From Candidatus Staskawiczbacteria bacterium (GTDB lineage Bacteria; Patescibacteriota; Minisyncoccia; Minisyncoccales; Staskawiczbacteraceae): a stretch of 35,634 nt of DNA. This document shows, in pieces, positions 59 through 34,972 of this stretch. The notes beneath the pieces were generated by a model. That model did not search any database, was not told the origin of the DNA, and saw nothing but the letters and a program-made list of their open reading frames with translations. Made by a program: the position numbers and the translations under genes. Numbering within the stretch: position 1 is the stretch's first letter; each line of letters starts with the position of its first letter. The stretch is from positions 1 through 35,634 of the forward strand of contig CAIMDW010000027.1 in NCBI GenBank assembly GCA_903839895.1, read 5' to 3'.

Positions 59-256
59 ATGAGCAAAGCTAACGATAAAAGGTTAGATGAGCTCTTTCAT
101 CTGCGAAGCAGAAAAAAACAGTTTGAAGTTAGTATTGACAGAACATCGGATTTAGATATTCGCCATGAGCTTCAAAAACGCTTAGAAGGAGTAAATGCCC
201 GCATTGTTTGGCTTGAAGAACGCACCGAAACGTACAAAGAACCGAAAATTGCTTAA
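59..256 (+). CDS. hypothetical small charged/helical protein (65 aa), family not recognised
   Basis: ORF track 44..256. I place the start at the in-frame ATG at 59 because GGAGGTG lies 6 nt upstream (gcGGAGGTGtgctATG). GC-richer than the core genes. A T-run follows the stop. Confidence 0.5.
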   Translation: MSKANDKRLDELFHLRSRKKQFEVSIDRTSDLDIRHELQKRLEGVNARIVWLEERTETYKEPKIA

Positions 257-298
257 TACCCAATGCAAATGCAAAGGGTCTTTTTTTGCTCTAAACTA

Positions 299-327
299 TT
301 GACAAGCTATACATAATATGATATAGT
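299..327 (+). promoter_or_regulatory. sigma70-like promoter, TTGACA-17 nt-TATAGT with TG at -15/-14
   Basis: TTGACA at 299..304, 17-nt spacer 305..321 ending in tga, TATAGT at 322..327. Lies about 70 nt upstream of the SD and ATG at 402. Confidence 0.55.
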
Positions 328-401
328 ATATACAGTTCTTAATACAGCTATTGGTCATATATTCATGGCCAAAGATTACCCGCAGAAGCAGGAGAAGCAC
401 C

Positions 402-1034
402 ATGTTGTGGTTCAAGAAGATGCAGAAGTATTGCTTTTTTGGCGCGATGGCAGTTGTCGCACTGGTCGCAGCATATGTGGCCGGCGTCATGACTCCGATA
501 TTCGGACCTCGCTATTATGGCGGGTTTGACTATGCCATTTTGCCGGGCGAGCTGGTCCAAGTGGTAAGAATCCAGGAGGAATTCACTAAGCCTTGGATGG
601 GCCTCACCGAAGCGAAGAGCCGTCATTGGCTCTATGTTAAAAGGCCGTATTACAAAGGGGATTTTCCCTTTATAGCCACTGACGGTGAGTTAAAGCTCAA
701 GGCTGGCGACTACGCAGTAAAAGAGGCGATAACCGGCAAGTTTTTCAAGGTTTGCTGGACCCCAAAATTCAGCTCTCAAAAAACTTCCCAAGTCGCTTCC
801 CTTAATCTGCCTATGCCTCCTCCGCCGAAGGCAACTCCTACAGATAACTTTCTTTCTCCTGAAAACAGAGAGAGAAATATCAAAGAGTTGGCTCGGACAA
901 AAACCTTTGAAGATGGGATAAAAATCATCAAATCCCACTTTCACCCGGTTCCTTATCCGGTGCCGAGCCCTACCCAAGCTCCCGAGGTTCTTTATGAAAG
1001 CACTTCGGACACGCGAGCAATTGCGAGCAAATAA
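402..1034 (+). CDS. hypothetical membrane-anchored protein with Pro-rich C-terminal half (210 aa)
   Basis: ORF track 351..1034 begins at a TTG. The ATG at 402 is preceded by AGGAGA with a 7-nt spacer. N-terminus MLWFKKMQKYCFFGAMAVVALVAAYVAGV looks like a signal anchor. About 50 percent GC by hand count (31/60 at 481-540). No family recognised. Confidence 0.6.
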   Translation: MLWFKKMQKYCFFGAMAVVALVAAYVAGVMTPIFGPRYYGGFDYAILPGELVQVVRIQEEFTKPWMGLTEAKSRHWLYVKRPYYKGDFPFIATDGELKLKAGDYAVKEAITGKFFKVCWTPKFSSQKTSQVASLNLPMPPPPKATPTDNFLSPENRERNIKELARTKTFEDGIKIIKSHFHPVPYPVPSPTQAPEVLYESTSDTRAIASK

Positions 1035-1061
1035 TTCTAGGTCTGCTATGCAGACAAAAAT

Positions 1062-1096
1062 GGCCCCAAAGCTGAAAAGCAATGGGGCCTTTAAAA
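1062..1096. terminator. bidirectional rho-independent terminator between convergent genes
   Basis: GGCCCCA (1062..1068) pairs with TGGGGCC (1083..1089). Followed by TTTAAAATACTTTTT on plus and by ATTTTTG on minus. Confidence 0.5.
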
Positions 1097-1102
1097 TACT
1101 TT

Positions 1103-3001
1103 TTATTTTATATTAGAACTGAAATAATCTAAAAGATTTCCTTTTACGATTATATTTGAGGCACGCAAATTATTCAGTTGCTGGGTATAAATATTTTGGC
1201 AGGCCGAAATTGCCAGCGCTTCTCCGTTGGGTGTTGTTTTGCAAGATCCATTTATAAAAATTCCGTCTTCGCCGGCCTCATAAGTCAAATCAGGCGACAA
1301 AATTGCGTCAATTCCGCCGGAAACAATTTCAAAATGCGTTTCAATTGGCGTTTTTGTGTTTAATAAATCCTGACCAAAAATTGTTTTTGGCGGTTTTATT
1401 CCTAAAAGATTTGCGATGGTCGGATAAACGTCAAGCTGGCTTGAAGGTTCGGAATTTATTCCTTGCAAGCCTGAATTTAAAATGATAAATGGAACCTGGC
1501 TGTTTTGCAATTCTGGCAGAATATTTTCGCCAAGAGCCGAAGAAATATTGGTGAAGCTTCCGTGGTCACCCCAAATCATAATTACCGAATTATCGTACAG
1601 GCCGTCTTTCTTTAGCCCGCTGATGAACTCGCCGATTGCTTTGTCTGTGTAATGGGCGGCCTGCAAATATTCCCATTGGGTTTCGGTCAAATTAGTTTGC
1701 GCAGGAATTTCCAGAGTCTGCAGATTTTCTGGCAGAATAAACGGCGTATGCAAACTCATTGTAATGACAGTTGCCATAAACGGCTGTTTAAAACCTTCCA
1801 ACCTGGGCAACGATTGGCTGAACAAATCTTCATCCCCCAAATCCGACGGGCCTTTGCCCACCGGCGAAGTTACAGTGTAATCGGCCAAACCAAAAGCTTT
1901 CTGGTAGCCCAACTGCGGATAAATGTTCGACCGGTTCCAAAACGTAGGCACGTCGCCATGCATGGAATAGGTTTTGTAGCCGTTATTCACTAAAAGCTGA
2001 GGCAATGCGCTGTAAGTATTTTTTGCGTAATCGATAAATGCCACATCGTTTGCCAGAGGATACAAGGAATTCATAGTGGAAAATTCTGTGTCGGCTGTAT
2101 TCCCAGGGCCAATCTGCGCATAAAAATTATTAAAATATAAGCCGTCTTTTGCCAGCTGATTTAAATTTGGCGTGATTTCTTGGCCGTTTATAGTTTTATT
2201 TATTACCGTATTTTCTAAAGATTCCACCTGTATGATTATCAAATTTTTGCTTTTTGCATTTCCAAAATATTTTGGCTTGGGTGTTTCTGCGGCTTTATTT
2301 TGAGCATAATTTTTCAAAAAGGCTTTGTCTGCATCCGAAATAAGATTTCTTCTGGAAATATATTTAAATGAATCTTCCAGGAAAAAATTCATGATTCCCA
2401 TCTTGCCCACTAATGCCTTCAAATCATAAACATCCGTGTAAAGCCTGCTGGTGCTTCCCCACTCCTTTTTTTCAGTGGATAGCAAATATTGGTAGCCAAA
2501 AAATACGATTGCGACACAAGCCAAAAAAAGGATTACTTTTTCCCACACAGGCAAAGAAAAATCAGCGAATTTTCTCCGTTTTGAAATTGTGAATACAGCC
2601 AAAACCAGCAGAAATCCCGCAAAAAACAAAAATAATTCGGGAGTCAGCAGGCTTTTTGCAGTGCCCTCTACGCTGAATGCTTGGTTTATATATCTTATAG
2701 CCGAAAATTGCAGGAAACTTTGCGAATACCTGTAATAAAGAAACTGGGCGGAAAAAAGCGCAGAAACCAAGAATGAAATTATAAAAAGGTAAATGTATGA
2801 ATATTTTCTTTTGAAAAGCAAAGCCGGCCCGTAAAAAACAATTCCCAGAGCCAAGGTCACCCAGAACAGCCTAGCTGAATAGTCGCTTGAAAAAATCTTC
2901 AGCCAAATGTTGAACACGAAATTTTGCGCAACAAATAAAAAAATCAGGGTTAAGGGCAACCCTAAGGTTTTTGCGTAAAGAATTATTTTTTCTTTAGACA
3001 T
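1103..3001 (-). CDS. LTA synthase-family sulfatase/phosphoglycerol transferase-like membrane protein
   Basis: 632 aa. About five N-terminal hydrophobic segments, then a sulfatase-type domain (IIIQVESLEN, MHGDVPTFWNR, IWGDHGS), the architecture of LtaS/MdoB-family enzymes. Confidence 0.8.
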   Translation of the reverse strand: MSKEKIILYAKTLGLPLTLIFLFVAQNFVFNIWLKIFSSDYSARLFWVTLALGIVFYGPALLFKRKYSYIYLFIISFLVSALFSAQFLYYRYSQSFLQFSAIRYINQAFSVEGTAKSLLTPELFLFFAGFLLVLAVFTISKRRKFADFSLPVWEKVILFLACVAIVFFGYQYLLSTEKKEWGSTSRLYTDVYDLKALVGKMGIMNFFLEDSFKYISRRNLISDADKAFLKNYAQNKAAETPKPKYFGNAKSKNLIIIQVESLENTVINKTINGQEITPNLNQLAKDGLYFNNFYAQIGPGNTADTEFSTMNSLYPLANDVAFIDYAKNTYSALPQLLVNNGYKTYSMHGDVPTFWNRSNIYPQLGYQKAFGLADYTVTSPVGKGPSDLGDEDLFSQSLPRLEGFKQPFMATVITMSLHTPFILPENLQTLEIPAQTNLTETQWEYLQAAHYTDKAIGEFISGLKKDGLYDNSVIMIWGDHGSFTNISSALGENILPELQNSQVPFIILNSGLQGINSEPSSQLDVYPTIANLLGIKPPKTIFGQDLLNTKTPIETHFEIVSGGIDAILSPDLTYEAGEDGIFINGSCKTTPNGEALAISACQNIYTQQLNNLRASNIIVKGNLLDYFSSNIK

Positions 3002-3665
3002 TTGGCGAAATTGCGCGAGTTTCGCCCGGCTTTAAAATTCCGAGCTTTATATCCCCTATACGTACGCGCTTCAATGAATTGATTGTTAAATTCATTTCAC
3101 TAAGCATAACCCTTATTTGGTGGTGCTTGCCTTCATTTAAAATTATGCGCAGCTTTTTATCGCCCGCAAGCTGAGTTTTGGCCGGCAATAATTTCCCCAG
3201 GGCTTCTGTCTCCATCCCCTGCTGAAAAATTCTGACAATGCCTTCGTGAATCGGCTCTTTTACAGTTGCTAAATATTCTTTTTCCCATTTTTTATCTGCC
3301 GACAAAACTTTTCTGGCAAACCTGCCGTCATTTGTAAGCAATAAAAGCCCTTCAGAACTTTTGTCGAGCCTTCCAATTGGATAAATTCCTTGTTTGCGCC
3401 AGTCTGTAATTACAGATCTCTGCCCCGGCAAATCTTGCGTGGGCAAATCTCTTGGCTTGTAGTAAGCCAAATATTTGTATTCTTTGGGAATTAAGCCTTT
3501 GGGTTGTCGCACAATAACTTTGTCTTTTTCAGTTACCAATAATCCGTTTTCAGCCCTTTTCCCGTTCACAAAAACCAGCCCGGCAGCCACCAGCCTGTCA
3601 GCCTCCCTGCGCGAAGCCAAATCCATATCCCGCAAATATTTGTTGATTCGTATAGGATAAATCAT
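2994..3665 (-). CDS. pseudouridine synthase, RsuA/RluB/RluF family (S4 domain plus catalytic GRLD)
   Basis: S4-like N-terminus RINKYLRDMDLASRREADRLVAAGLVFVNG and catalytic motif GRLDKSSEGLLLLTNDG. Start set at the ATG at 3665 (MIYPIRINKYL). The longer track ORF to 3797 runs through a terminator into the upstream gene. Overlaps the LtaS-like start by 8 nt. Confidence 0.85.
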   Translation of the reverse strand: MIYPIRINKYLRDMDLASRREADRLVAAGLVFVNGKRAENGLLVTEKDKVIVRQPKGLIPKEYKYLAYYKPRDLPTQDLPGQRSVITDWRKQGIYPIGRLDKSSEGLLLLTNDGRFARKVLSADKKWEKEYLATVKEPIHEGIVRIFQQGMETEALGKLLPAKTQLAGDKKLRIILNEGKHHQIRVMLSEMNLTINSLKRVRIGDIKLGILKPGETRAISPNV

Positions 3666-3689
3666 TAAATTATAATACCAGAAAAACCG

Positions 3690-3721
3690 CAAAAAAAGAA
3701 GGCTAGAACTAATTTCTAACC
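3690..3721 (-). terminator. rho-independent terminator after the purH-like gene
   Basis: Minus strand reads GGTTAGAA-atta-gTTCTAGCC followed by TTCTTTTTTTG. Confidence 0.55.
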
Positions 3722-3727
3722 TATTTA

Positions 3728-4771
3728 TTAATGCCCGAAAAATCCTCGGGCCTTGGAATCTGGCAATTGGTAAAGCGTGACGCCCCTGTCGATGCATAAT
3801 TGCTGGACCAATCCGTCGTTGATGCTGCCCGAAGTGCTGAAAATGGCTTTGATTCCATGGCGGATAAGAACATCCACGGCATCGGTAAATGGGAAAAACG
3901 AGTCGCTGTATGCAACAGCTCCGTCAAGCTTAAGGATATGCCCGGCATCGCAGGCTCTTTTAACTGCTAGTTCAGCAGCGCCAACGCGGTCTTGCTGGCC
4001 AACTCCATTGCCAATCAGCATGCCGTCGTTGACAAGAGTAATTGTGTTGCTGTTGGATGTGCACCCAATTGCCCAAGCCAGCAATAAATCTTTTTCATCG
4101 CTTTTGCACCTTTTGCCGAAAACCTGCATTTCATGATCTTTGAAATCTAAAATGTAGGTGTAATTTGGCTGAGCTAGGAATCCTCCGCGAACATAACGGA
4201 ATCGCGAGGCATTATCCAGCACATCCGAACATGAATAAAGATTTTGATTTTCCATTAATCGGCATTTCCCTTTTGCGCGGGAAAGTATTTTGACCGATTC
4301 TTCCATAAATTTCGGGGCAATGACGCCGTCAAACATTGTTTTTCCGTTGGGCATAACGTCTGCCATAATGCCGGCGAGTGCCTCGGTCATTGGGAAGTTA
4401 ATCATAACAAGCCCGCCAAAAATCGCGCGCTTATCTCCTTGAACCATTTTTTGGGCCGTGGTGCATGGCTGGTCATAACTGACCGCCGCGCCACACGGAT
4501 TGCCATGTTTACCACCGATGGCGATGAATGGAGCTTTGCCGTAATTCAGCTTCCAGGCCGCCGATATGTGCGTCATGGTCTGCAGAAGTCGGTCCACATC
4601 GCACCAGTTGTTGTAGCTGGGCTCGGACCCTTCGATGACTTTGAATTTGTGGAGCGCCAACGGATCATCTGTGCCGCGGCCGTAGAGCGCAGCCGGGCTT
4701 TGCGGACCGTTTTCGCCCTTAAATTCGCAAGTCTTAATTCCCGCAATCTCCCTTGTTTCCAAGCTCATCAT
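3728..4771 (-). CDS. purH: AICAR formyltransferase, the C-terminal half of PurH only; no IMP cyclohydrolase/MGS domain
   Basis: 347 aa. GGKHGNPCGAA matches the PurH KHxNPCG motif, and the C-terminal ...SKARGFFGH matches the PurH ...RHFRH end. Length fits the AICARFT domain alone. SD AAGAGGT lies upstream of a tandem ATG ATG, so the start may be 4768. About 53 percent GC in the sampled line. Confidence 0.85.
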   Translation of the reverse strand: MMSLETREIAGIKTCEFKGENGPQSPAALYGRGTDDPLALHKFKVIEGSEPSYNNWCDVDRLLQTMTHISAAWKLNYGKAPFIAIGGKHGNPCGAAVSYDQPCTTAQKMVQGDKRAIFGGLVMINFPMTEALAGIMADVMPNGKTMFDGVIAPKFMEESVKILSRAKGKCRLMENQNLYSCSDVLDNASRFRYVRGGFLAQPNYTYILDFKDHEMQVFGKRCKSDEKDLLLAWAIGCTSNSNTITLVNDGMLIGNGVGQQDRVGAAELAVKRACDAGHILKLDGAVAYSDSFFPFTDAVDVLIRHGIKAIFSTSGSINDGLVQQLCIDRGVTLYQLPDSKARGFFGH

Positions 4772-4855
4772 TTACCTCTTTCATTATAAATTTTGCGTCT
4801 ATTTTCAACGAGCACGCGTAAACATACCTTAACAAAAATATTAATTTAGTCAAAT

Positions 4856-4897
4856 AAAAACCCTCCAGAAGTCTCTCGTTTCTTCTGAAGGGTTTTT
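4856..4897 (-). terminator. rho-independent terminator, structurally bidirectional
   Basis: CCCTCCAGAAG (4861..4871) pairs with CTTCTGAAGGG (4882..4892) with one mismatch. Flanked by AAAAA on one side and TTTTT on the other. Separates 4922..5677 from the purH-like gene. Confidence 0.7.
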
Positions 4898-4921
4898 ACC
4901 GACGTTATTTTATTTTCAAAA

Positions 4922-5677
4922 TTAGAATCCGAACAGGTGTTTGAAGAAGCTTCCAATACCATGCATCATTCCGCCGAATCCACCTTGCGGCTTTGTTTTG
5001 TTTTCTGCATTATCTCCTGTTCCGGCAGGCTTTGCTTTCTGGTCAATCACCGACGAAGCCGTTACTGCATTTCCATTTATTATTCCTTGCACAACAACGC
5101 TGTCTCCTACTGCCACATTCGAAATTGTGGGATTTACAACGCCGTTTACTGCAAATTTTGCATTTGTGGCGTCAATTGTATAAGTGACATTGCTGGCGTT
5201 GGTAATTGTAATTGAGCTTCCGCTGAGTGCAGTAACCTTTCCTGCCACAATCGGCTGGCCGTTACCCTGTATTTGCGAAAGATCTTGTTTTTCCAAACCT
5301 GGCCTGACCCCGTCCCTAATGGCTGTTGCCACAATATTTGTCCCGGTGATTGTTCCTTGGACCATTATTGTATCCCCAACCGCAATTGCTGAAATTGCTG
5401 ATGTCGCGCCATTTTTTGCCACAGTTGCTTTTGATGCGTCAACCGTATAAATTGTCGTAGTTTGCGTTCCCGCAGAGCCTTCTGACTTCATTTTATTCTT
5501 GCTTGTTACCGTAATTGTCGTTCCGCTTACTGCTGAAACCATTCCCACAATACCCGGTTTGCCCATCATCCCTCTATTAAAGCCAGAATTTCCTTGAGCA
5601 AAAATTGGAGCCGCAAATGCAAACCCTCCTACTATTACTGCCGCCATCATAAACGAAATAATTTTTTTGTTTTGCAT
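4922..5677 (-). CDS. secreted protein with two internal beta-rich repeats of about 75 aa (DUF5666-like) and a Gly/Met-rich tail
   Basis: Start set at the ATG at 5677 (MQNKKIISFMMAAVIVGGFAFAAPIFAQG, a signal peptide). This removes the overlap with the exonuclease gene. Repeats: ...TIYTVDASKATVAKNG...AVGDTIMVQGTITG... and ...VTYTIDATNAKFAVNG...AVGDSVVVQGIING... Confidence 0.7.
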   Translation of the reverse strand: MQNKKIISFMMAAVIVGGFAFAAPIFAQGNSGFNRGMMGKPGIVGMVSAVSGTTITVTSKNKMKSEGSAGTQTTTIYTVDASKATVAKNGATSAISAIAVGDTIMVQGTITGTNIVATAIRDGVRPGLEKQDLSQIQGNGQPIVAGKVTALSGSSITITNASNVTYTIDATNAKFAVNGVVNPTISNVAVGDSVVVQGIINGNAVTASSVIDQKAKPAGTGDNAENKTKPQGGFGGMMHGIGSFFKHLFGF

Positions 5678-5757
5678 GTATTGGTTTTTAATTTTATTTA
5701 CATTAACCAATACGCGGCCATTGGCGCACTCGGTGCATTTTAGGTCCGTTTTCACCC

Positions 5758-6339
5758 TTAAATTCCAAATTTCTTCAATTCCCAAAAACATTTTGCTGTA
5801 GCTTCTGCATCGGCTAATGCGTTGTGAGAGCCCTCGAATCCGCAGCCGAATAATTTCATATGGAGCTCTGAAAGCTTAGGCCACTTATAACCTCCGTAGC
5901 CATTAGTGGCAGGTATTGCGCAAAAATTTGTGGACATGTCTTTCGTACAAATTTTATTTTTTCTGGCTAGGCAGGTTTGGATGCCTTTTCTGATGAATTC
6001 TGCTCCGACTACCATTTCGTCAAAGCTGATATTATGGGCAACAAGAAAATCTGACTCTGCAGCAAAACTTTCAAATTTATCCAATGCTTCCTCCAACGGA
6101 ATCCCCTCTTTTTCAGCTTGCTCGGTTGTAATTCCGTGTATGTTGGAAGCCTCAATGGGTATCTTAAAATTTTCGGGCTTGATTATCATATCTGAACTGC
6201 TGATGCAGGCGCCATTTTTATAAAATACCCAGGCAATCTGGACTAATCTTGGCCAATTTTCCAAATCACTTATCGGGGCGCGCCAGTTGCGTGGCAATCC
6301 GGTGGTTTCCGTATCAAAAAATAAATATGCTTTGTCCAT
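5758..6339 (-). CDS. DnaQ-like 3'-5' exonuclease (DEDDh, DNA polymerase III epsilon family)
   Basis: Exo I FFDTETTG, Exo II LVAHNISFDEMV, Exo III HNALADAEATAKCF. Confidence 0.85.
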   Translation of the reverse strand: MDKAYLFFDTETTGLPRNWRAPISDLENWPRLVQIAWVFYKNGACISSSDMIIKPENFKIPIEASNIHGITTEQAEKEGIPLEEALDKFESFAAESDFLVAHNISFDEMVVGAEFIRKGIQTCLARKNKICTKDMSTNFCAIPATNGYGGYKWPKLSELHMKLFGCGFEGSHNALADAEATAKCFWELKKFGI

Positions 6340-6351
6340 ATATGTGGCGTT

Positions 6352-6927
6352 CTATAAAAAACTCGCAATTATGTTTGATAATTCATCTTTCCCTTCGTCT
6401 GTTTTTGCCGAATATTCTAAAATTTGAAGGCCCTGCGCTTCTTGGATTATTGAGGAAATTTTTTCGGCCCTTTTGGCTTTTGCCAGCTTGTCGGCTTTAT
6501 TGGCAATTATAATAATCTTATGATTATTCTTTTTGACTATTTGGAGCATTTCCCAGTCCAATTTGGTCAATCCGACATTAGCATCAATAACTAAAAAGAC
6601 CGCTTTAGGCCTTATGTTTGAGAATTCTAAATACCAGAAAATCCTTTTAACCATCCGGTTGCGGTCTGCTATGGAACGCCTGGCGTATCCGTATCCAGGA
6701 AAATCAACAAGATAAAAAGAATCATTCATCCTGAAAAAATTCGCCTCAAGCGTTTTTCCGGGAACCTTGCTGGATTTTACAAAGTTTTTTTTGCCGGTCA
6801 GAGAATTAATCACGCTGGATTTGCCAGAATTTGACCGCCCTAAAAAAGCAATCTGGGGAAAACCATCTCCCGTACTATAATCATTCCCGATAACTCCTCT
6901 GGCAAACTCTGTCTTCAATATTTTCAT
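6352..6927 (-). CDS. engB: ribosome biogenesis GTPase EngB/YsxC/YihA
   Basis: G1 GRSNSGKSS, G3 DFPGYGYA, G4 NKADK. The spacing of the N-terminus to G1 is typical of EngB. Confidence 0.9.
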   Translation of the reverse strand: MKILKTEFARGVIGNDYSTGDGFPQIAFLGRSNSGKSSVINSLTGKKNFVKSSKVPGKTLEANFFRMNDSFYLVDFPGYGYARRSIADRNRMVKRIFWYLEFSNIRPKAVFLVIDANVGLTKLDWEMLQIVKKNNHKIIIIANKADKLAKAKRAEKISSIIQEAQGLQILEYSAKTDEGKDELSNIIASFL

Positions 6928-6929
6928 TG

Positions 6930-7000
6930 CTGCGGGACTTGGACTCGAACCAAGATACCAGCCTTCAAAGGGCTGTGTCCTACCTTTAGACGATCCCGCA
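6930..7000 (-). tRNA. tRNA-Gln (anticodon UUG)
   Basis: Hand-folded cloverleaf on the minus strand: acceptor UGCGGGA/UCCCGCA, D arm GUCU-AAAGGUA-GGAC, anticodon arm CAGCC-CUUUGAA-GGCUG, variable GUAU, T arm CUUGG-UUCGAGU-CCAAG, discriminator G. 71 nt; CCA is not encoded. U1:A72 is typical of bacterial tRNA-Gln. Confidence 0.9.
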
Positions 7001-7012
7001 AAATATTATATT

Positions 7013-7041
7013 ATAATATCATTTTTCTGAAGTTTTTTCAA
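7013..7041 (-). promoter_or_regulatory. candidate promoter for tRNA-Gln/engB, TTGAAA-17 nt-TATTAT
   Basis: On the minus strand, TTGAAA (7041..7036), a 17-nt spacer, then TATTAT (7018..7013), 12 nt upstream of the tRNA 5' end. The -35 lies inside the 3' end of the capA-like gene. Confidence 0.35.
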
Positions 7042-9531: not shown

Positions 9532-9598
9532 AAAAATATAAAATTAAAATTATTTATTTATTATACCTTTTTTTCAGCCGTCAAGCATGTGGATAAGT

Positions 9599-10705: not shown

Positions 10706-10723
10706 AAATTTATTTTAATTGAT

Positions 10724-10757
10724 TATAAAAAAATTAGGGGCTTAAATCAAGTCCCTA
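10724..10757 (-). terminator. rho-independent terminator after the zinc-ribbon gene
   Basis: Minus strand reads TAGGGAC-ttgatttaa-GCCCCTA followed by ATTTTTTTATAAT. The stem includes the TAG stop. Confidence 0.55.
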
Positions 10758-10949: not shown

Positions 10950-10971
10950 TTTGCACCTCCTTGTAAAAGGA

Positions 10972-11526: not shown

Positions 11527-11535
11527 AAGGCTTTT

Positions 11536-11559: not shown

Positions 11560-11571
11560 AATTTAAACAAT

Positions 11572-21629: not shown

Positions 21630-21648
21630 TAACTATGCATTTTTTCCC

Positions 21649-27121: not shown

Positions 27122-27124
27122 TTT

Positions 27125-28411: not shown

Positions 28412-28415
28412 AGTT

Positions 28416-28820
28416 TTATTTATTTAAAATTGATGAATGAAATTTTTCGGGTTTATAGGGCTTTAATCTATCTATTTCAATATTCTCCAATCCCCTCTCT
28501 TTCAATTCTTTTTCCAAATTATCAGCATAATTGTGCTGGTCATATCCCAAGCAAATCACATCGGGCTTCAAATTTTCTATAAGCTTATAAGGATCTGTTT
28601 CGTCCCCCAGCAGCGCGTCATCAACCAAATCGCAATCTATCAAATCCCCAACCCTCTGCTCTTCGTCTTTTTTCGGCAAATTTCCCTTCAATTTTTCGAC
28701 ATTTTTATCCCTGCCGGCAACAACAATCAAGTAATCTCCGTATTCCCGAGCCTGCCTGAAAAAATCTAAATGCCCTTCATGCAGTCCGTCAAATGTCCCA
28801 AAAACCATCACCTTTTTCAT
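28416..28820 (-). CDS. cytidylyltransferase-like nucleotidyltransferase (HxGH; RibL/TagD-like)
   Basis: MKKVMVFGTFDGLHEGHLDFF is the canonical N-terminal beta-strand plus HxGH motif. I prefer the ATG at 28820, which leaves a 5-nt gap after lysS. The track start at 28862 would overlap lysS by 37 nt. Confidence 0.7.
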   Translation of the reverse strand: MKKVMVFGTFDGLHEGHLDFFRQAREYGDYLIVVAGRDKNVEKLKGNLPKKDEEQRVGDLIDCDLVDDALLGDETDPYKLIENLKPDVICLGYDQHNYADNLEKELKERGLENIEIDRLKPYKPEKFHSSILNK

Positions 28821-28825
28821 ATTTT

Positions 28826-30346
28826 CTATTGTTTTGGCTTCATTAATGGGAATATTTGGCAATCGCGCATGGGTTTATCCATTAAAAAGGCAAATAACCT
28901 TTCGGAAACTCCGAATCCGCAGGTTGGGGGCATGCCATGTTCTAGGGCTTCCACGAAGTCTTTATCGTATCTTTGGGCTTCGGCATCGCCTGCATCGCGC
29001 AATTTTTGCTGTTCTGTAAATCTTTCTGCCTGGTCTATTGGATCGTTTAATTCAGAATATCCTTTGCCCATTTCAGAGCCCGCCAAAATTACTTGGAATC
29101 TTTGGACCAGTTTTGGATTTTTTTCCATTCTTTTTGCCAATGGTTCCATTATAATCGGCACATTTATTAGGAATCCTGGGCCTGGAATGTTTTTCCTGCA
29201 ATATTTCCACAAGTTATCAATTGCGCGGGTAATATTAAAGCCATTTCGGTCATATTCAATTTTCAACTTCTGCAAAACTTTTTCTATTTCTGACAAGCTT
29301 GCTTCTTCTATGTTTACTCCCGTGTATTTTGAAATTGTGGAATTAAAATCGTATTTTTCCCATTTTTTTCCCAAGTCAACTTCAAATCCGCGGATATTGA
29401 ATTTTAAAGTCCCAAAAGCTTTCTTGGCGACATATTTGTACATTTCTTCCACTAGTTCCATGCCCTGCTCGTAATCTGTGTAGGCAGAATAACATTCCAT
29501 TTGCGTGTAATCCTGCAAATGTTCTGAATCTATTCCTTCATTGCGAAATTGCCTGCCAATTTCAAATGTTTTTTCAAATCCCGCCACCATTAACTTCTTC
29601 TGCCACAATTCGCCAGTGGAAATGCGCAAATAAACATCCATATCTAAGGCATTGTGGTGAGTTTTAAATGGCCTTGCATCGGCTCCGCCTGGAGTTGTTT
29701 CCAAAACAGGAGTTTCCACTTCCAAAAACTTTTTTTCAAGCAAAAATTCCCGCATTGCGCCCCAAAACATTGCCCGTTTCTGAATCATTTCCTTCACTTC
29801 AGGATTAAATATTATATCCAAATATCTCTTTCTTAATTTTTCTTCCACGTCTTGAATTCCATGCCATTTTTCTGGCAAAGGCAAAAGCGCCTTTGAAAGC
29901 ATTTTGTAATCGTCTGCTTCTATGGTTTTTTCGCCTCTTTTTGTTATGAATAAAGTCCCTTTTATTTCCACAAAGTCAGCAATATCAAAAACATCCAGAA
30001 AAAACTGGTAGCCTTTTTCCCCAAGCTTGTCGGTTTTTATAATTGCTTGAATTTTTCCAGTCCCGTCATTTATATCCAAAAAAGTAGCTCCCCCATGCCC
30101 TCGTTGCGCCATAATTCTGCCAGCTATCACAACTGTCTTTTTCTTAGACAAAATTCCACCCGAAAGCTTCTTGAAGTTTTCCAAAACCTCGGCAACAGAA
30201 TGTGTTCGTTTTGTCTTGGCCGGATACGCCAAAATCCCAGCATTTTTCAGCTTCTTTAATTTCTCAATTCTCGTTTGCCGTAATTCTTCAATTGTTGGCA
30301 TGAATTTGCGAGCGAGGCGAGTAAATTCACTTCGCAATTTTAGCAT
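28826..30346 (-). CDS. lysS: lysine--tRNA ligase, class II
   Basis: OB-fold N-domain, motif 2 FRNEGIDSEHLQ, motif 3 region GFGVSERL, and a length of about 500 aa. Confidence 0.95.
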   Translation of the reverse strand: MLKLRSEFTRLARKFMPTIEELRQTRIEKLKKLKNAGILAYPAKTKRTHSVAEVLENFKKLSGGILSKKKTVVIAGRIMAQRGHGGATFLDINDGTGKIQAIIKTDKLGEKGYQFFLDVFDIADFVEIKGTLFITKRGEKTIEADDYKMLSKALLPLPEKWHGIQDVEEKLRKRYLDIIFNPEVKEMIQKRAMFWGAMREFLLEKKFLEVETPVLETTPGGADARPFKTHHNALDMDVYLRISTGELWQKKLMVAGFEKTFEIGRQFRNEGIDSEHLQDYTQMECYSAYTDYEQGMELVEEMYKYVAKKAFGTLKFNIRGFEVDLGKKWEKYDFNSTISKYTGVNIEEASLSEIEKVLQKLKIEYDRNGFNITRAIDNLWKYCRKNIPGPGFLINVPIIMEPLAKRMEKNPKLVQRFQVILAGSEMGKGYSELNDPIDQAERFTEQQKLRDAGDAEAQRYDKDFVEALEHGMPPTCGFGVSERLFAFLMDKPMRDCQIFPLMKPKQ

Positions 30347-30434
30347 GATTTATCAAATATATTATTGCTGAAATTGCGTTGCGACACCTTGCTATTTATA
30401 CATAATACCAAAATTAAAAGCATAGGTAAACAGC

Positions 30435-30463
30435 TTGACGATATCAATCTATTAGTTTAAAGT
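30435..30463 (+). promoter_or_regulatory. candidate promoter of the purO-like gene, TTGACG-17 nt-TAAAGT
   Basis: TTGACG at 30435..30440, 17-nt spacer, TAAAGT at 30458..30463. About 40 nt upstream of AGGAGG and the ATG. Confidence 0.4.
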
Positions 30464-30507
30464 CTATATAAGCCTTTTAGGTGAACCCAAAAAGCAGGAG
30501 GAATATT

Positions 30508-31266
30508 ATGGATTGCTCTAAAGAAGCCCAAAAAAACCTAGAGTGGTTACGGGGAAATATTTACCCGGGACGTGGCTTGGTTATGGGCATGGATGAAACC
30601 GGAGAAAATCTGGTTCAGATTTACTGGATTATGGGACGAAGTGAAAACAGCCGGAATCGTGTTTTTAGCCACGAAGCCGGCCGAGTCTTCACCGAGGCCG
30701 CCGACCCCGCGAAGGTTAAGGACCCGAGCTTGATCATTTACAATGCAATGTGCGAGAGCCATGCCGTCGTCCCGAAATATGGATACCGTTTTTGCGCCGT
30801 AAGCAATGGATGCCAAACCGATGCAATTATCCATCAATGCGACGAGGAAGCCCCTCTGACCAGCGCAATGGCAAAATTCCACTACGAACCGGACGCGCCG
30901 AATTTCACTCCCAGAATCTCTGGCTTATGCAAAGTCAATGGAGTTGGAACTTACAGCGCTGAAATGTCAATTCTCCGCAAATCGCCCTGGACCGACGATT
31001 GTGATAGAGCGCATTACACATATTTCCATATCGCGCCAGGGTTCGGCTATTGCCTAACCACTTATTTGGGCGACGGCGACCCTTTGCCGTCGTTTCACGG
31101 CGAGCCATTGCTGATGCCGATTATCGGCAGTGAAATTGCAATCATGGCTATTTACTGGGATGCGCTCAATAAAAACAATCGCGTTTCCCTGGTTGTAAAA
31201 ATTATCCCGATATCCGGCGGACCAAGCAAGGTTCACATTGTGAACCGTTTCGAAAAAGCAGCTTAA
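30508..31266 (+). CDS. purO: archaeal-type IMP cyclohydrolase (PurO / IMP_cyclohyd family)
   Basis: Start at the ATG at 30508, preceded by AGGAGG with a 6-nt spacer. Segments YPGRGLVMG, IMGRSENSRNR, AVSNGCQTD and YEPDAPNFTPRISG align with the remembered M. jannaschii PurO (YLGRILAVG, SSRSFPNR, VSNGSHTD, YEKDELNTPRIAA). GC-rich, up to 38/60 in one line. Confidence 0.8.
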   Translation: MDCSKEAQKNLEWLRGNIYPGRGLVMGMDETGENLVQIYWIMGRSENSRNRVFSHEAGRVFTEAADPAKVKDPSLIIYNAMCESHAVVPKYGYRFCAVSNGCQTDAIIHQCDEEAPLTSAMAKFHYEPDAPNFTPRISGLCKVNGVGTYSAEMSILRKSPWTDDCDRAHYTYFHIAPGFGYCLTTYLGDGDPLPSFHGEPLLMPIIGSEIAIMAIYWDALNKNNRVSLVVKIIPISGGPSKVHIVNRFEKAA

Positions 31267-31284
31267 CAGCCGCTTCTTTTTTTT
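31257..31284. terminator. bidirectional terminator between convergent purO and PBP2 genes
   Basis: AGCAGC-ttaaca-GCCGCT (one mismatch) followed by TCTTTTTTTT. On the minus strand the same stem is followed by TTTTCG. Confidence 0.5.
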
Positions 31285-31294
31285 GCAAAAAATA

Positions 31295-33208
31295 TTATTT
31301 TGACGTAAAATACCAATTCAAAACTTCTTTGGCGACTGGCAAGGTTACAGCGCCCACGCCATTTACATTTTCTGCTGTGACTACCAGAACAATTTCAGGA
31401 TTGTCGTATGGCGCAAAAACTGATGACCAGACATTGTATTGGTCTTTCAACCCAATTTCAGCTGTTCCAGTTTTGGCGGCTACCGACACGGGCAAGCTTC
31501 GCAGAGTCCCAGACAAGCCATAACTTTCTGTAACGCCGTCTCTCATGCCTTCCCTGACAATTTGCAAATTTGCCGGGTCTATGAAATTCGACCTAATAAT
31601 TTGCGGAGAAAATTCCTGGACGGTTTTTGAAGCGTCAGAAGAAACAACCTTATTTACGATTTGAGGCTTATATAAAGTGCCTCCGTTTGCAATAGCGCAA
31701 TATGCCGAGGCAACCTGCAAAGGAGTCGTCTGTAAATCTGATTGTCCGATAGAAAGGTTGTAAGTATCGCCAAGCACCCAAGAGCTTCCTTTTGTGGATT
31801 TTTTCCAGGCCCTATCAGGAATAAATCCTGAAAATTCGCCAGGCAAATCAATGCCGGTTTTCTGGTTCCAGCCGAAAAGCGAAAGATATTTCTTAATCAA
31901 ATCAGGCCCAAGGCCTTTTTGCCCTTCATATCCCCCGCCTACTGTATAAAAATAAATGTTTGAAGAAACTGCAATGGCTTTTCTCATATCAACCATTCCA
32001 TGAGGTTTTACCCCTCCAAACCGGTAAGTTACGCTTGGGTCGTACTGGCTGCGGACTAAAATATACCCCGGATCATTTATTTCCTTTTCAGGAGAAATTA
32101 TTTTTTCTTGCAAAGCTGCGGAAGCTTCAAACGGCTTTATGGTAGAGCCTGTAGGATATTTTGCAGAAATTACCCTGTCAAAAAGAGGCTGGGAAGGGTC
32201 GCCAATCAAGGTTTTATAATCAGCCTGCGAAATTCCTCCTGAAAACAAATTGTCGTCGTATGATGGATAAGAAACCAAAGCCAAAATGGCTCCTGTGCGC
32301 GGATCCATAGCCACAGCAGCGCCTTTTTTAGCGTTCATTTTTTGGAATGTTGCTGACATTGCGTCGTAAAGATGCTGTTGCAAGTCGGCATCTATATTCA
32401 GCACTAAATTTTCGCCTGACTGGGGTTGGACCGAAACGCCGTTTGGAGAATTCGGATCGGACTTTGAAGTTTTCAGCTGGCCGGGAACTCCGCGCAAATA
32501 GTCTTCATAATATTGCTCAAGTCCGGTTTTTCCAATGTAGTCATTTATAGAATATCCATTTGAAACTCCATATTCATCGCTGTTTATCCGGCCAGTATAA
32601 CCTAAAACCTGCGAAAAAACCGGGCCGTAAACATATTCTCTGGCGGCATTTTGCTGGAGCTTGCAGCCCGCAAAATCATTTATTTTTGACTCGACCAGCA
32701 AAAGCTTTTCGTGGTCCATGTTATTTGCCACCAAAACTTGCGACGCGCTTGCGTTTTGAATTTTTTGAGTTATATCTTGCGCTCCTATTCCTAAAGTATC
32801 GGCAATTTCCTGGGTTTCTTTTGAAATTTCAGCTGAAGAATATGTGAAGCTTGACCTGTCGCAAACCAAATCATAAGCGGGCGAATTTACCACAAGCTTT
32901 TTCATATTCTTGTCGTAAATTATGCCTCGGGGAGGAATAATCAGGTTTACCGAGCCTTTATTATTTTCTGCTTCGGTAAGCAATTTTTTGCCAAGGAAAA
33001 TTTGGAAATATGCGGTCCTTAAGAATAGAATAGCGGTCAAAACAAAAAAAGTTCCGAATAATACATAGGAAATTTTTTCTTTAAGCGGAACTTCAAACTT
33101 TTTTTCGGACAATCCCAGCTCTTCTTCTTTCACTTGGGCAAGCTTGTCTAAAAAAACTTCGTGCGGTTCTATGTCTGAAAATGAATTTTTTAGCCGGTAT
33201 GTTTTCAT
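31295..33208 (-). CDS. mrdA: penicillin-binding protein 2 (elongasome transpeptidase)
   Basis: N-terminal TM, SxxK STIKPF, SxN SSN, KTG KTGTA. Lies directly downstream of mreC-mreD. Confidence 0.9.
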   Translation of the reverse strand: MKTYRLKNSFSDIEPHEVFLDKLAQVKEEELGLSEKKFEVPLKEKISYVLFGTFFVLTAILFLRTAYFQIFLGKKLLTEAENNKGSVNLIIPPRGIIYDKNMKKLVVNSPAYDLVCDRSSFTYSSAEISKETQEIADTLGIGAQDITQKIQNASASQVLVANNMDHEKLLLVESKINDFAGCKLQQNAAREYVYGPVFSQVLGYTGRINSDEYGVSNGYSINDYIGKTGLEQYYEDYLRGVPGQLKTSKSDPNSPNGVSVQPQSGENLVLNIDADLQQHLYDAMSATFQKMNAKKGAAVAMDPRTGAILALVSYPSYDDNLFSGGISQADYKTLIGDPSQPLFDRVISAKYPTGSTIKPFEASAALQEKIISPEKEINDPGYILVRSQYDPSVTYRFGGVKPHGMVDMRKAIAVSSNIYFYTVGGGYEGQKGLGPDLIKKYLSLFGWNQKTGIDLPGEFSGFIPDRAWKKSTKGSSWVLGDTYNLSIGQSDLQTTPLQVASAYCAIANGGTLYKPQIVNKVVSSDASKTVQEFSPQIIRSNFIDPANLQIVREGMRDGVTESYGLSGTLRSLPVSVAAKTGTAEIGLKDQYNVWSSVFAPYDNPEIVLVVTAENVNGVGAVTLPVAKEVLNWYFTSK

Positions 33209-33711
33209 TTGTTAAATAATGACAACTGGCGGTTGTCTTCAGGATTGAAATATTTCTTATAAAAATAAAATAACACTGCAGCCAAAATTATATCATATAT
33301 TATGCTAAAAACCATATCGGAAGGCATTTTGGTTGCGAATGCCAGCAAAAATTTATATGCTGCCAGAAAAATTGCAAAAAGCGGGGCAAAATACAAGAAT
33401 GGATAATTGTCTGACGAATTTTGCAAAAGGTTTTGGGTTTTTTTTATCAGCAAACCGAAAATACCCAGCAGAACTATGGAAGGTCCGAGATTTGCGGCAG
33501 AAAATATGTCCAAGAAAAATCCTGCTGACAAGCCCAGGATAAAAGATGAAAAATAAGCGCTTTTTTTCTCAAAAAATGCCAACAAAAAAAATATTATGAA
33601 AACAAGGTCGGGGTTTGCCCCGAAAAGCGCAAAATAAGAGAAAAAGCTGGTTTGCAGGAGAACCGCAACGTAAAAAAGCAAAATTGCTATGGATATTTTT
33701 TGCCAAACCAT
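33205..33711 (-). CDS. mreD: rod shape-determining protein MreD
   Basis: 168 aa, about five hydrophobic helices. Located between mreC and PBP2, overlapping both neighbours by 1-4 nt. Confidence 0.7.
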   Translation of the reverse strand: MVWQKISIAILLFYVAVLLQTSFFSYFALFGANPDLVFIIFFLLAFFEKKSAYFSSFILGLSAGFFLDIFSAANLGPSIVLLGIFGLLIKKTQNLLQNSSDNYPFLYFAPLFAIFLAAYKFLLAFATKMPSDMVFSIIYDIILAAVLFYFYKKYFNPEDNRQLSLFNK

Positions 33712-34547
33712 TAGTCTTTGTTTTTAAAGTTTGTGATTACAAACAAATTGTCGATTTTGACATCCAAAAACAAATTTACTTCGGCCCGCTGGAACTGCGT
33801 TTGGTCGTTTTGGCTTTTGCTTGTTATTTGCCCGATAAGCAAATCTTTCGGAAAAGATTTATCTATGGCGGAAGTCACCAAAATATCTTGCGAGTTTATT
33901 GCGCTGGCCGCCGGCACCATATCTAAAAATGCGCCCAATCCCCCTTTGCCTTTCAGCATGCCTGAAACTTCGGGAAGAGTTGCATCGGAATTTTGGACTT
34001 TTATAATTACATTGCTTGATTTGCTGGTAATCATCATTACATCGGAAAAATTTTTGTAAACTTTTATGACTTTCCCATACAAAACATTTTGCCCCGATAT
34101 TACCGGCATACCCGCCGCCACTCCGTCGGCCGAGCCTTTATTTAATGACAAAATATCGTTGTCGAGCCCCGTAACGCCTGCCATGACAAATTTATACCCT
34201 GTATTTTGGCAAGTGGCTGAAATGTCGCTTTGCGCCTGGTTTCCTTGCTGAATCGACTGCAAAGCCGCAATTTGCGACAAAAGCATTTGGTTCTTATTTT
34301 TCAAATCCTGGTTTTCCTTGGCAAAATTTCCGGCATTTAAAAAAGATCCCAAAAAATTAGACGAGGAAATTCCTGCTGCCATAAAAGTTTTCTGGATAGG
34401 ATAGGAAACTGCATAAATGTAATTTTTGACCGGTGAAACAAAAATATTCAGCAAAAAAACTAAAAACAAAAAAACAGCCGCGCCAATTAAAATTTTCGGC
34501 AGGCTATTATTTTTTTTATTAACAGAAAAATTTTTAAGCGCTGGCAT
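33711..34547 (-). CDS. mreC: rod shape-determining protein MreC
   Basis: N-terminal TM, coiled coil ENQDLKNKNQMLLSQIAALQ, then beta-rich domains (GMPVISGQNVLYGKVIKV..., LVTSAIDKSFPKDLLIGQI) typical of MreC. Confidence 0.85.
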   Translation of the reverse strand: MPALKNFSVNKKNNSLPKILIGAAVFLFLVFLLNIFVSPVKNYIYAVSYPIQKTFMAAGISSSNFLGSFLNAGNFAKENQDLKNKNQMLLSQIAALQSIQQGNQAQSDISATCQNTGYKFVMAGVTGLDNDILSLNKGSADGVAAGMPVISGQNVLYGKVIKVYKNFSDVMMITSKSSNVIIKVQNSDATLPEVSGMLKGKGGLGAFLDMVPAASAINSQDILVTSAIDKSFPKDLLIGQITSKSQNDQTQFQRAEVNLFLDVKIDNLFVITNFKNKD

Positions 34548-34571
34548 ATTTGAACAAATTTCTTTACCGTC

Positions 34572-34600
34572 ATTTTACCTTGCTCAAAAAATAATTGCAA
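34572..34600 (-). promoter_or_regulatory. candidate mreC operon promoter, TTGCAA-17 nt-TAAAAT
   Basis: On the minus strand, TTGCAA (34600..34595), a 17-nt spacer, then TAAAAT (34577..34572), about 24 nt upstream of the mreC ATG. No SD. Confidence 0.5.
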
Positions 34601-34619
34601 CACTTTTTCTCCACCGCGC

Positions 34620-34648
34620 AAAAAAAAGCCGCCATTTAAAATGGAGGC
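34620..34648 (-). terminator. rho-independent terminator immediately after the orphan gene 34649..34972
   Basis: Minus strand reads GCCTCCAT-tttaa-ATGGCGGC (7 of 8 pairs) followed by TTTTTTTT. Confidence 0.7.
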
Positions 34649-34972
34649 CTAATCGAGAAAATTTTGCGCAAAGGCTTCGGTCATTTCAATCAAGACAAAT
34701 TGTGTGCCGTGGCCGAAATCGCCCATAATTCTTGATGCTGATGCTTCAGAATGTCCTCCCAAAAGTGCCGCCGTCATTCTGGAAAAATCCCGGAGAAGTA
34801 TAATATTGTGTCTTAGATAATCCGGAACAAATTTTCCCAATGGATGACCTTGCTGGTCACGATATTCGCAATCGAGCACAGGTTCGTCGCCCTCGGGCAA
34901 TACGCTCAAAAGCTGGTCGAGACCCTGCTGAAGCCGCACCCGAAGCTGGTTGTACGACATTTTCTCAGCCAT
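34649..34972 (-). CDS. hypothetical protein (107 aa), monocistronic, family not recognised
   Basis: ATG preceded by AGGAAAGGA with an 8-nt spacer. Has its own promoter-like hexamers and terminator. GC-richer than the flanking mreC. Confidence 0.55.
   Translation of the reverse strand: MAEKMSYNQLRVRLQQGLDQLLSVLPEGDEPVLDCEYRDQQGHPLGKFVPDYLRHNIILLRDFSRMTAALLGGHSEASASRIMGDFGHGTQFVLIEMTEAFAQNFLD

Follow-up and report, generated by a model that had tools for sequence, protein, structure and literature searches.

Shine-Dalgarno-led gene cassettes as probable recent acquisitions in the SD-less backbone of a Candidatus Staskawiczbacteria contig

Contig CAIMDW010000027.1 of Candidatus Staskawiczbacteria bacterium (GenBank assembly GCA_903839895.1) carries two classes of genes which are distinguished by their translation initiation signals. 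The window, meaning the whole analysed stretch of 35,634 bp, has a G+C content of 40.4%. It contains 27 housekeeping and cell-envelope protein genes, tRNA-Gln, the 5S rRNA and the 3′ end of the 23S rRNA, as well as eight small genes referred to here as islands (isl1 to isl8). The islands are preceded by Shine-Dalgarno (SD) motifs, most of them strong, and the core genes by A/T-rich leaders. The eight islands are probably recent and independent acquisitions which entered a conserved backbone, itself SD-less, at intergenic hot spots and have kept SD sequences of the donor type. Composition-atypical pangenome islets, horizontal gene transfer (HGT) in Patescibacteria, and SD-independent initiation, described in Bacteroidia and proposed for some Parcubacteria, are already known. 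The window adds a clean and quantified example from a lineage of the candidate phyla radiation (CPR): cargo and core can be told apart by their type of initiation signal, and there is a hint that the SD is lost on genes that are retained. In the limited literature searched, no paper was found stating that the initiation signal separates cargo from core. The islands are the following (GC3, G+C at third codon positions; z, deviation of codon usage).

isl1: 59-256, plus strand; helical or charged orphan of 65 aa; SD GGAGGTG at 48-54 with a spacer of 6 nt; GC 0.389.
isl2: 402-1034, plus strand; 210 aa; SD AGGAGA at 390-395; GC 0.485, GC3 0.53; codon z = 5.2.
isl3: 4771-3728, minus strand; 347 aa, predicted PurH of the AICAR formyltransferase (AICARFT)-only type; GC 0.497, GC3 0.546; codon z = 4.8.
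isl4: 10949-10755, minus strand; zinc-ribbon-like orphan of 64 aa (CxxC...CxxC); SD GGAGGTG at 10960-10954.
isl6-isl5 two-gene unit: 13667..14558, minus strand; antiparallel to cysS and dnaB.
isl6: GTG at 14474 to the stop at 13932, minus strand; SD GGAGGTG at 14484-14478; alternative starts ATG 14492 and ATG 14549.
isl5: 13969-13667, minus strand; 100 aa; SD AAGGAGGG, with GGAGG at 13983-13979; 38-nt overlap with isl6.
isl7: 30508-31266, plus strand; PurO-like protein of 252 aa; SD AGGAGG at 30496-30501; GC 0.494, GC3 0.542; codon z = 3.8.
isl8: 34972-34649, minus strand; orphan of 107 aa; weak SD AGGAAAGGA; GC 0.475.

SD strength was taken as the duplex energy of the region from -22 to -4 against the canonical 16S tail, 5'-CACCUCCUUU-3'. 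The energies are -13.3, -7.4, -5.2, and -14.8 kcal/mol for isl1 to isl4 and -12.3, -12.5 (isl6, from GTG 14474), -10.3, and -5.7 kcal/mol for isl5 to isl8. In the 27 core genes, the values lie between +2.3 and -5.8 kcal/mol, with a median of about -0.6 (Mann-Whitney p=2.8e-5). The motif GGAGG is not in excess in the window (32 copies against 34 expected), and it is its placement that is peculiar: it lies 5-9 nt before the start in 5/8 islands and in 0/27 core genes (binomial 8e-7; Fisher 1.7e-4). The heptamer GGAGGTG occurs three times, and every copy is an island SD (isl1, isl4, and isl6). Overall, a purine-rich motif complementary to CCUCC with a spacer of 5-9 nt precedes six islands, as GGAGG(TG) in isl1, isl4, isl5, isl6, and isl7 and as AGGAGA in isl2. 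The start regions differ also in their folding. From -25 to +25, the median energy is -6.3 kcal/mol in the islands and -2.9 kcal/mol in the core (p=0.004), the core regions being A/U-rich and nearly unfolded. A first-pass annotation of this DNA had listed eight SD-bearing start contexts and a series of housekeeping starts devoid of SD. All eight are present as quoted, the gene starting at 10949 lying on the minus strand, and the second part is borne out by the core energies and by the lack of any placed GGAGG among the 27 genes.

Base composition follows the same division, less completely. The whole-gene GC of seven islands is 0.45-0.50, above that of every core gene (0.35-0.44; p=1.3e-4). The same annotation had counted G+C in six 60-nt lines, exactly in every case (31, 32, 32, 38, 21, and 19), and had called all eight genes GC-rich, which is correct for seven of them and not for isl1. 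It had also proposed a codon-usage check. Carried out within the window, this marks isl2, isl3, and isl7 only as clearly atypical (z 3.8-5.2); the other islands are not clearly set apart, and the core gene dnaB and the gene of a giant surface protein deviate as well.

The islands interrupt a gene order which is otherwise widely conserved. Related loci were collected around DnaB and PBP2, 12 from GTDB genomes and 50 from JGI metagenomes, and several more were added by exact look-up. The window DnaB is 78-91% identical to proteins from metagenome-assembled genomes (MAGs) named Candidatus Staskawiczbacteria, which places the source in the CPR/Patescibacteria (Parcubacteria). The order dnaX-gtrA-pgsA-cysS-dnaB-recR-giant-sortase-CAP-ftsQ-femAB-degT-murF-hydrolase-serS-lysS-pbp2-mreD-mreC-5S-23S is kept in the relatives, both in Ca. 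Staskawiczbacteria and in other Paceibacteria loci (L004-L013, L020-L073), down to a protein identity of 45-50%. No tblastn match to isl3-isl7 was obtained in any of these loci that keep the flanking order, within the 10 kb from the anchor genes that were covered. In particular, isl3 was not found in L007 and L009 where the pseudouridine synthase gene meets that of the exonuclease, isl4 was not found at dnaX/gtrA in L007-L013, and isl7 was not found at pbp2/lysS in about 50 related loci. Syntenic and universally present orthologues, named in the first-pass annotation as the sign of an ancestral origin, were found for none of the testable islands.

The same junctions are closed in some relatives and differently filled in others. 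The cysS/dnaB junction holds other inserts or none in L004-L013: it measures 58 bp in L011, is larger and GC-richer with other open reading frames (ORFs) in L007 and L008, and in L009 is a 0.5-kb gap, not GC-rich, with an SD-led ORF. Similarly, pbp2/lysS is 28-54 bp long in L036, L041, L052, and L067 and 0.4-4.6 kb long, with other genes, in L020, L023, L026, L069, and others. The inserts of the relatives include PEP-CTERM proteins, a PKD-repeat lipoprotein, an NT5C-type nucleotidase, and an SD-led aspartokinase fragment. Such heterogeneity indicates repeated uptake of unrelated DNA and not one accessory system.

Two of these inserts at pbp2/lysS deserve separate description. The proteins with a PEP-CTERM signal in L023 (4832-5707) and L026 (11961-12884) are 53% identical to each other, and their genes have 58% GC in host genomes of about 40% GC. 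The PEP-CTERM/exosortase system is a Gram-negative feature, and therefore its presence in CPR genomes points to transfer from outside the CPR. In L040 (5015-5320), a perfect AAAGGAGG SD leads a 101-aa N-terminal fragment of an aspartate (amino-acid) kinase, the dead remains of an imported gene which has retained its SD.

Variation is observed even between nearly identical strains. Two loci (L001 and L002) match the window with 99.5% identity over the stretch serS to mreC and have isl7 at the same place. Exactly the segment 34613-35043, which comprises isl8 and its promoter, SD, and terminator, is exchanged in both of them for a 680-bp cassette in which AAGGAGGTG precedes two different orphan genes; the identity is 99.5% at either side of the exchange. 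A sister contig (L075) matches the window at about 96% over 294-5457 and has nothing corresponding to 1-293, the segment of isl1. In this strain, the only one in which isl2 is testable, isl2 is present with an indel. Intact ORFs were found in sister strains for isl4, isl5, and isl6 (L003) and for isl2 and isl3 (L075). The junctions of isl2-isl8 are reproduced in independent JGI, Logan, and ENA assemblies (L001, L002, L003, L075, L074, L076, and L077). In addition, isl3 is found on 1.36-kb contigs which break at both sides and isl8 on short ENA contigs which break 45 nt upstream of the gene, as would be expected if the assembly graph forked at the borders of these islands. The first-pass annotation had considered the islands laterally acquired and separately expressed cargo. 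This is supported by the absence of isl3-isl7 in syntenic relatives, by the replacement of isl8 and the lack of a counterpart of isl1 in sister strains, by the membership of all eight in 90%-identity clusters of only 1-2 proteins, and by the antiparallel orientation of five of them to both neighbours.

Some further differences between strains were recorded. The dnaX gene (9599-10705) shows 60 single-nucleotide polymorphisms (SNPs) per kb against L003, its neighbours 0-18 per kb, and the adjoining isl4 none; the pattern looks like a recombination tract beside the cassette. The identity to sister contigs of the same JGI sample is mosaic, with 95.9% over 294-5457, 98.8% over 6652-19737, and 99.5% over 27294-34612, and the indel of isl2 is one of 54 nt near the N-terminus. 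This points either to a mixture of several strains or to frequent recombination.

The association of SD and cargo extends beyond the window. The genes of the relatives were called by one rule, as backbone when homologous to a window core gene or as junction insert, redundancy was removed, and an SD was considered strong at dG<=-7 at the first ATG. Strong SDs precede 17/78 junction inserts and 5/245 backbone genes (22% vs 2%; Fisher 7e-8, non-redundant). The median GC excess over the backbone is +0.092 for SD-bearing inserts and +0.026 for SD-less ones (p=0.0016). None of the seven insert families common to diverged species carries an SD, in comparison with 16/56 singletons, a difference that alone is not significant. 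In 244 non-redundant backbone genes of the relatives, each upstream position from -22 to -1 consists of 35-55% A and 5-16% G, and groES, groEL, dnaG, rpoD, and rplU of related genomes have no SD. Native genes and recent imports of an SD-less CPR lineage are told apart by their type of initiation signal beyond what base composition shows, and this signal type could serve as a simple marker of the flexible genome for organisms known only from metagenomes.

In two other Staskawiczbacteria loci (L017:14190-16407 and L072:627-2089), orphans with a GC of 0.48-0.55 stand behind GAAGGAGGT or GGGAGG beside a backbone with a GC of 0.23-0.33, the same contrast as in the window and even more strongly expressed. 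Locus L072 contains also two small, oppositely oriented ORFs (9739-10017 and 13361-13603) with near-identical upstream sequence, tcggcg[a/g]ggtttcgtgcgattaATG, which flank the mreC-mreD-pbp2 block and may form an inverted repeat element.

A series of insertions would account for these observations. Seven transcription units, with eight genes, would have entered recently and independently at backbone junctions, that is, upstream of the sulfatase gene, between the pseudouridine synthase gene and the next gene, and at dnaX/gtrA, cysS/dnaB, lysS/pbp2, and mreC/5S rRNA. These junctions would act as hot spots, closed or differently filled in relatives, at which whole cassettes are exchanged between near-identical strains. 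Each unit would have brought signals of the donor type, namely, a canonical SD (often GGAGGTG) 5-9 nt from the start, usually a promoter, and sometimes a terminator, and most units would also have brought a higher G+C. Native genes would initiate without an SD on unstructured A/U-rich leaders, and the SD of a cassette would be a carried-over donor signal, lost if the gene is kept. Horizontal acquisition is the presumed source of the cassettes. Their spread and replacement through homologous recombination in the conserved flanks can only be inferred, because no mobility genes or repeats are present.

Genomic islands derived from HGT are common in Patescibacteria (PMC12455944). The window resembles such pangenome islets and hot spots in that atypical accessory genes lie between core genes, the same junctions hold different cargo in each genome, and cassettes are replaced between close strains. 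It differs in the size of the units, which are tiny (1-2 genes, 0.2-1.1 kb) and without integrase, tRNA, or repeat signature, and in the type of initiation signal which sets them apart, a feature unused in that study.

Several islands appear to be equipped for their own expression. The genes isl1/isl2, isl5/isl6, and isl7, five in all, are antiparallel to both neighbours and therefore must have their own promoters. Promoter-like sequences were found before isl2 (TTGACA-17-TATAGT, 299-327; 11/12, TG-extended), before the isl6-isl5 unit (TTGACG-17-TATTTT, 14558-14530), and before isl7 (TTGACG-17-TAAAGT, 30435-30463), the last gene being antiparallel to lysS and pbp2. The signals of isl3 are TATAAT at 4787-4782, the weak SD AAGAGGT at 4780-4774, and a terminator-like hairpin with T-run at 3722-3700. 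The isl8 cassette (34613..35043, minus strand) is flanked by the terminator of the 5S rRNA and the promoter of mreC and has an AT-rich promoter region and a hairpin with T-run. Conversely, isl4 follows gtrA at a distance of 22 nt, and the two genes probably share a transcript. A consensus scan for promoters and terminators gave 62 promoter-like sites against 36-47 expected; because it is weakly discriminating in AT-rich DNA, it has been used only as support for single islands. The first-pass description of the islands as self-contained is thus appropriate for the antiparallel genes, for the promoter-like sites before isl2, isl6, and isl7, for the isl3 terminator, and for isl8, which is exchanged as a promoter-SD-ORF-terminator unit, and it does not suit isl4.

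Only two islands can be named, and both belong to purine synthesis. The isl3 protein matches Pfam PF01808 with E=4e-41, over profile positions 82-311 only. No MGS/IMPCH domain was found in it with Pfam, and the part of the PRK00881 model which is matched comprises residues 218-501. Its scores against the NCBIfam purH models are under the equivalog cut-offs. As far as the sequence indicates, isl3 is an AICARFT-only protein and not a bifunctional PurH. The isl7 protein matches PF07826 with E=3.8e-38 (131.5 bits vs a gathering cut-off of 28.1) over profile positions 1-188/192. Against the NCBIfam archaeal PurO equivalogs it reaches 35.7 and 24.7 bits, under the cut-offs of 150 and 158, and it is therefore labelled PurO-like, with a predicted function. 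In the best-hit list, its nearest homologues are 50-59% identical, come from CPR wherever the source is named, and stand in other genomic contexts. PurO-like genes are common in CPR, for example, in the contexts HIT/PurO/DnaG in another Staskawiczbacteria genome and NUDIX/PurO/PDDEXK in L019.

Acting jointly, isl3 and isl7 would convert 5-aminoimidazole-4-carboxamide ribonucleotide (AICAR) to its formyl derivative (FAICAR) and this to inosine monophosphate (IMP), the last two steps of purine synthesis. They are predicted to be the only functionally linked islands. The two genes are 26 kb apart and have near-equal GC (0.497/0.494) and GC3 (0.546/0.542). Neither a ZTP nor any other riboswitch was found before them by Rfam at gathering and permissive thresholds. 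The archaeal-type end of the purine pathway consists of an AICAR formyltransferase domain and the IMP cyclohydrolase PurO, the latter represented by the enzyme of Methanocaldococcus jannaschii. The window resembles it in having only the AICARFT part of PurH in isl3 and a PF07826 protein in isl7. It differs in that the genes are scattered over 26 kb with no operon, and in that isl7 is far under the NCBIfam cut-offs and shares 50-59% identity with a large group spread over the CPR, its activity being predicted. The purine cassettes suggest that the strain has gained the conversion of AICAR to IMP, which bears on the nucleotide dependence of these symbionts.

For the other six islands (isl1, isl2, isl4, isl5, isl6, and isl8) no significant match was obtained in Pfam, NCBIfam, PHROGs, and PADLOC, and isl4 gave sub-threshold zinc-ribbon matches only. 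The isl2 protein has a hydrophobic segment in the N-terminal part and a Pro-rich C-terminus. Neither isl2 nor isl6 has a significant match among PDB sequences; in 5.8 billion protein clusters, the only match to isl6 is its own strain variant, and isl2 has one homologue, 37% identical, among 1.84 billion representatives. In a set of about 15 billion proteins clustered at 90% identity, all eight islands fall in clusters of 1-2 members, isl1 and isl4 being singletons. Single-sequence AlphaFold2 models have a predicted confidence (pLDDT) of 31.5 (isl6) and 45.9 (isl8), which is insufficient for a fold search. PADLOC detected no anti-phage defence protein among the six orphans and the two genes carried by the alternative cassette. 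These six islands are lineage-specific and have no demonstrable common function. Five genes without family had been reported in the first-pass annotation, one fewer than found here, and a common accessory role, such as host interaction, had been proposed for them. The proposal finds no support: the genes do not co-occur elsewhere, and relatives have unrelated genes at the same junctions, the only functional link being the one between AICAR formyltransferase and IMP cyclohydrolase, that is, between the two nameable islands.

A number of observations weigh against recent acquisition with donor-type SDs. The SDs of isl3 and isl8 are weak and no stronger than the best core values (recR and ftsQ, -5.8). 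The GC of isl1 is host-like (0.389), and the five short islands show no significant deviation in codon usage, short genes giving little power. In the relatives, 78% of the inserts have no strong SD, and hence the SD is enriched in cargo and does not define it. The absence from relatives refers to distances of up to 10 kb from the anchor genes. No integrase, transposase, tRNA-linked attachment (att) site, or flanking repeats were found at any island of the window. No donor was found, and the named nearest relatives of the PurO-like protein are CPR themselves; isl7 could be an old PurO of the CPR which has merely been relocated. The six orphans are genes by prediction, their single-sequence AlphaFold models are uninformative, and the remote-homology searches covered two of them, isl2 and isl6.

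Among other explanations, the cassettes may be remnants of phages or mobile elements of CPR bacteria, that is, prophage islets or morons, whose SDs would reflect a phage translation strategy. A classical phage moron is a short orphan with its own promoter, a strong extended SD, and a terminator, which is exchanged between strains. The cassettes have this appearance, as autonomous promoter-SD-ORF-terminator units encoding orphans, and the uniform GGAGGTG core in isl1, isl4, isl6, and the cassette of L001 hints at a common type of source. They differ from morons in having no prophage context and no match to phage families or viral contigs: no PHROG match was obtained below E=0.01, and isl2, isl6, isl7, and isl8 are without relatives in 2.9 million IMG/VR contigs. 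In addition, genes of an integrase, a capsid, or a terminase are missing from the window, as are att repeats, and the inserts of relatives include plainly cellular genes. A phage origin is therefore regarded as unlikely. Integron cassettes were also considered and rejected, as no integrase ORF, no attC, and no imperfect palindromes common to the cassette ends were detected. The resemblance lies in small units of one gene which are exchanged at a fixed position; the window cassettes have their own promoters and occupy six scattered junctions, with no attC, integrase, or common Pc promoter.

It has to be considered also whether several orphans are genes at all. They might be non-coding or decaying foreign DNA of higher GC, with an ORF formed by chance after a fossil SD. 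Such a view is favoured by the lack of homologues and domain matches and by the low-confidence models of isl6 and isl8, and the truncated aspartokinase of L040 shows that dead fragments can retain an intact SD. Against it, ORFs of 64-210 aa begin exactly 5-9 nt after a strong SD while GGAGG is randomly placed elsewhere, the ORFs of isl4-isl6 are intact in L003 and those of isl2 and isl3 in L075, and promoter and terminator signals flank several orphans. On balance, this possibility appears slightly weaker still than that of a phage origin.

Less probable still is that the SD-bearing genes form a native, ancestral class under special translational control in an SD-blind organism. SD-poor lineages do keep a few functional SDs (PMC13000453, PMC7797042), an example being rpsU of Flavobacteriia, with a lone strong SD that serves autoregulation. 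Two other CPR genomes have a PurO homologue preceded by a purine-rich motif, which is AAAGGAGC in L017 and weak in L019. The synteny data largely refute this explanation, since none of the other species examined has any of the islands at the same place. Moreover, isl1 and isl8 vary between near-identical strains, six islands are essentially without homologues, and no insert family common to diverged species has an SD. As for an assembly or binning artefact, by which a CPR contig would have been joined to GC-rich pieces of foreign origin, chimeras can occur among MAG contigs and GC shifts are a classic symptom; but the recurrence of the isl2-isl8 junctions in independent JGI, Logan, and ENA assemblies argues against chimeras, the islands are single genes between collinear core genes at both sides, and the idea is hardly credible.

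If the islands are recent acquisitions, the fate of their SDs depends on the ribosome of the host. In Bacteroidia, initiation is SD-independent and occurs on A-rich leaders (PMC6847099, PMC7797042), and about half of Parcubacteria are reported to have a 16S rRNA without the anti-SD motif (PMC9297842). Whether Staskawiczbacteria fall in the group without anti-SD is not stated in the text of Tsurumaki et al. The core start regions of the window resemble those of Bacteroidia in being A/U-rich, G-poor, weakly folded, and without SD. The difference is that in Bacteroidia the anti-SD is present and sequestered and the SD of rpsU is native and regulatory, whereas the SD genes of the window are non-native cargo. 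The likeness to the Parcubacteria subgroup (PMC9297842) concerns a relative, L047, whose 16S rRNA is without CCUCC.

The 16S rRNA was not found within the window by an Rfam scan or in any fetched Staskawiczbacteria locus. In L072, a Staskawiczbacteria locus, the gap between called genes upstream of mreC (4541-8609) is too short for 16S, 23S, and 5S together, and judging from these called genes the 16S appears unlinked from the 23S in Staskawiczbacteria. The only 16S recovered is that of L047 (L047:1780-1960), of 1853 nt with insertions relative to a model of 1533 positions. It ends with GGAUCAUUUAAUUU where the consensus has GGAUCACCUCCUUU, CCUCC being replaced by UUUAA. L047 shares the 23S-5S-mreC-mreD-pbp2-lysS arrangement with the window, and its pbp2/lysS junction, which holds PurO in the window, contains a GC-richer lipoprotein gene led by AGGAGG. 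An AGGAGG-led insert together with a 16S without CCUCC means that cargo SDs can exist where the ribosome cannot pair with them. In other relatives, the 23S rRNA genes are interrupted, by a group I intron in L026 (2160-6212) and by several insertions in L052 (1932-7613).

If the 16S tail of the host is GGAUCACCUCCUU, the cassette SDs could work as signals of strong translation. If it is like that of L047, GGAUCAUUUAAUUU, they would be inert relics, which would favour the idea that SD-blind ribosomes act as a translational firewall, possibly through loss of CCUCC as in L047. SD-led imports would then be poorly translated, and foreign DNA would be cheap to carry, accumulate, and turn over at intergenic hot spots; domestication would take place only after the leader has been rewritten to the native A/U-rich type. 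The firewall fits the finding that 0/7 insert families common to diverged species carry an SD, and it is at present a speculative extension with a low probability. Independently of it, the presence of SD-led and A/U-leader genes on one chromosome, with a close relative demonstrably without anti-SD, is a natural experiment. It bears on how ribosomes which lack or do not use the anti-SD treat foreign mRNAs and on the amelioration of expression signals after transfer.

The backbone and the RNA genes of the window are the following.

SD-less backbone with A/T-rich leaders: 1103..34547, no strand assigned; 27 protein genes and tRNA-Gln. The order is sulfatase/LtaS-like, pseudouridine synthase, exonuclease, engB, capA-like, dnaX, gtrA, pgsA-like, cysS, dnaB, recR, giant surface protein, sortase, CAP, ftsQ, femAB, degT, murF, hydrolase, serS, cytidylyltransferase, lysS, pbp2, mreD, mreC.
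tRNA-Gln: 6929-7000; adjoins no island.
5S rRNA: 35183-35290, minus strand; borders the isl8 hot spot.
23S rRNA, 3′ end: 35397-35634, minus strand; borders the isl8 hot spot.

At gathering and permissive thresholds, Rfam detected only tRNA-Gln, 5S, and 23S, and no hidden RNA genes in the islands. A core protein of 523 aa (7960-9531) has a Gln/Pro-rich, low-complexity N-terminal third, with a local GC of 0.47 at 9001-9500; because this part lifts the GC, 500-nt GC peaks are not specific to islands. A 28-nt direct repeat, 24/28 identical, connects the 5′ part of isl3 (4699-4726) with the 3′ end of the exonuclease gene (5738-5765) and encloses the gene of a secreted protein of 289 aa; by estimate, it is borderline with respect to chance. 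The giant surface protein (1082 aa, 16596-19844), whose codon usage deviates more than any other in the window (z=7.7), contains three tandem Cys-rich repeats of 213 nt (71 aa) at 17785-18347, which are 65-72% identical.

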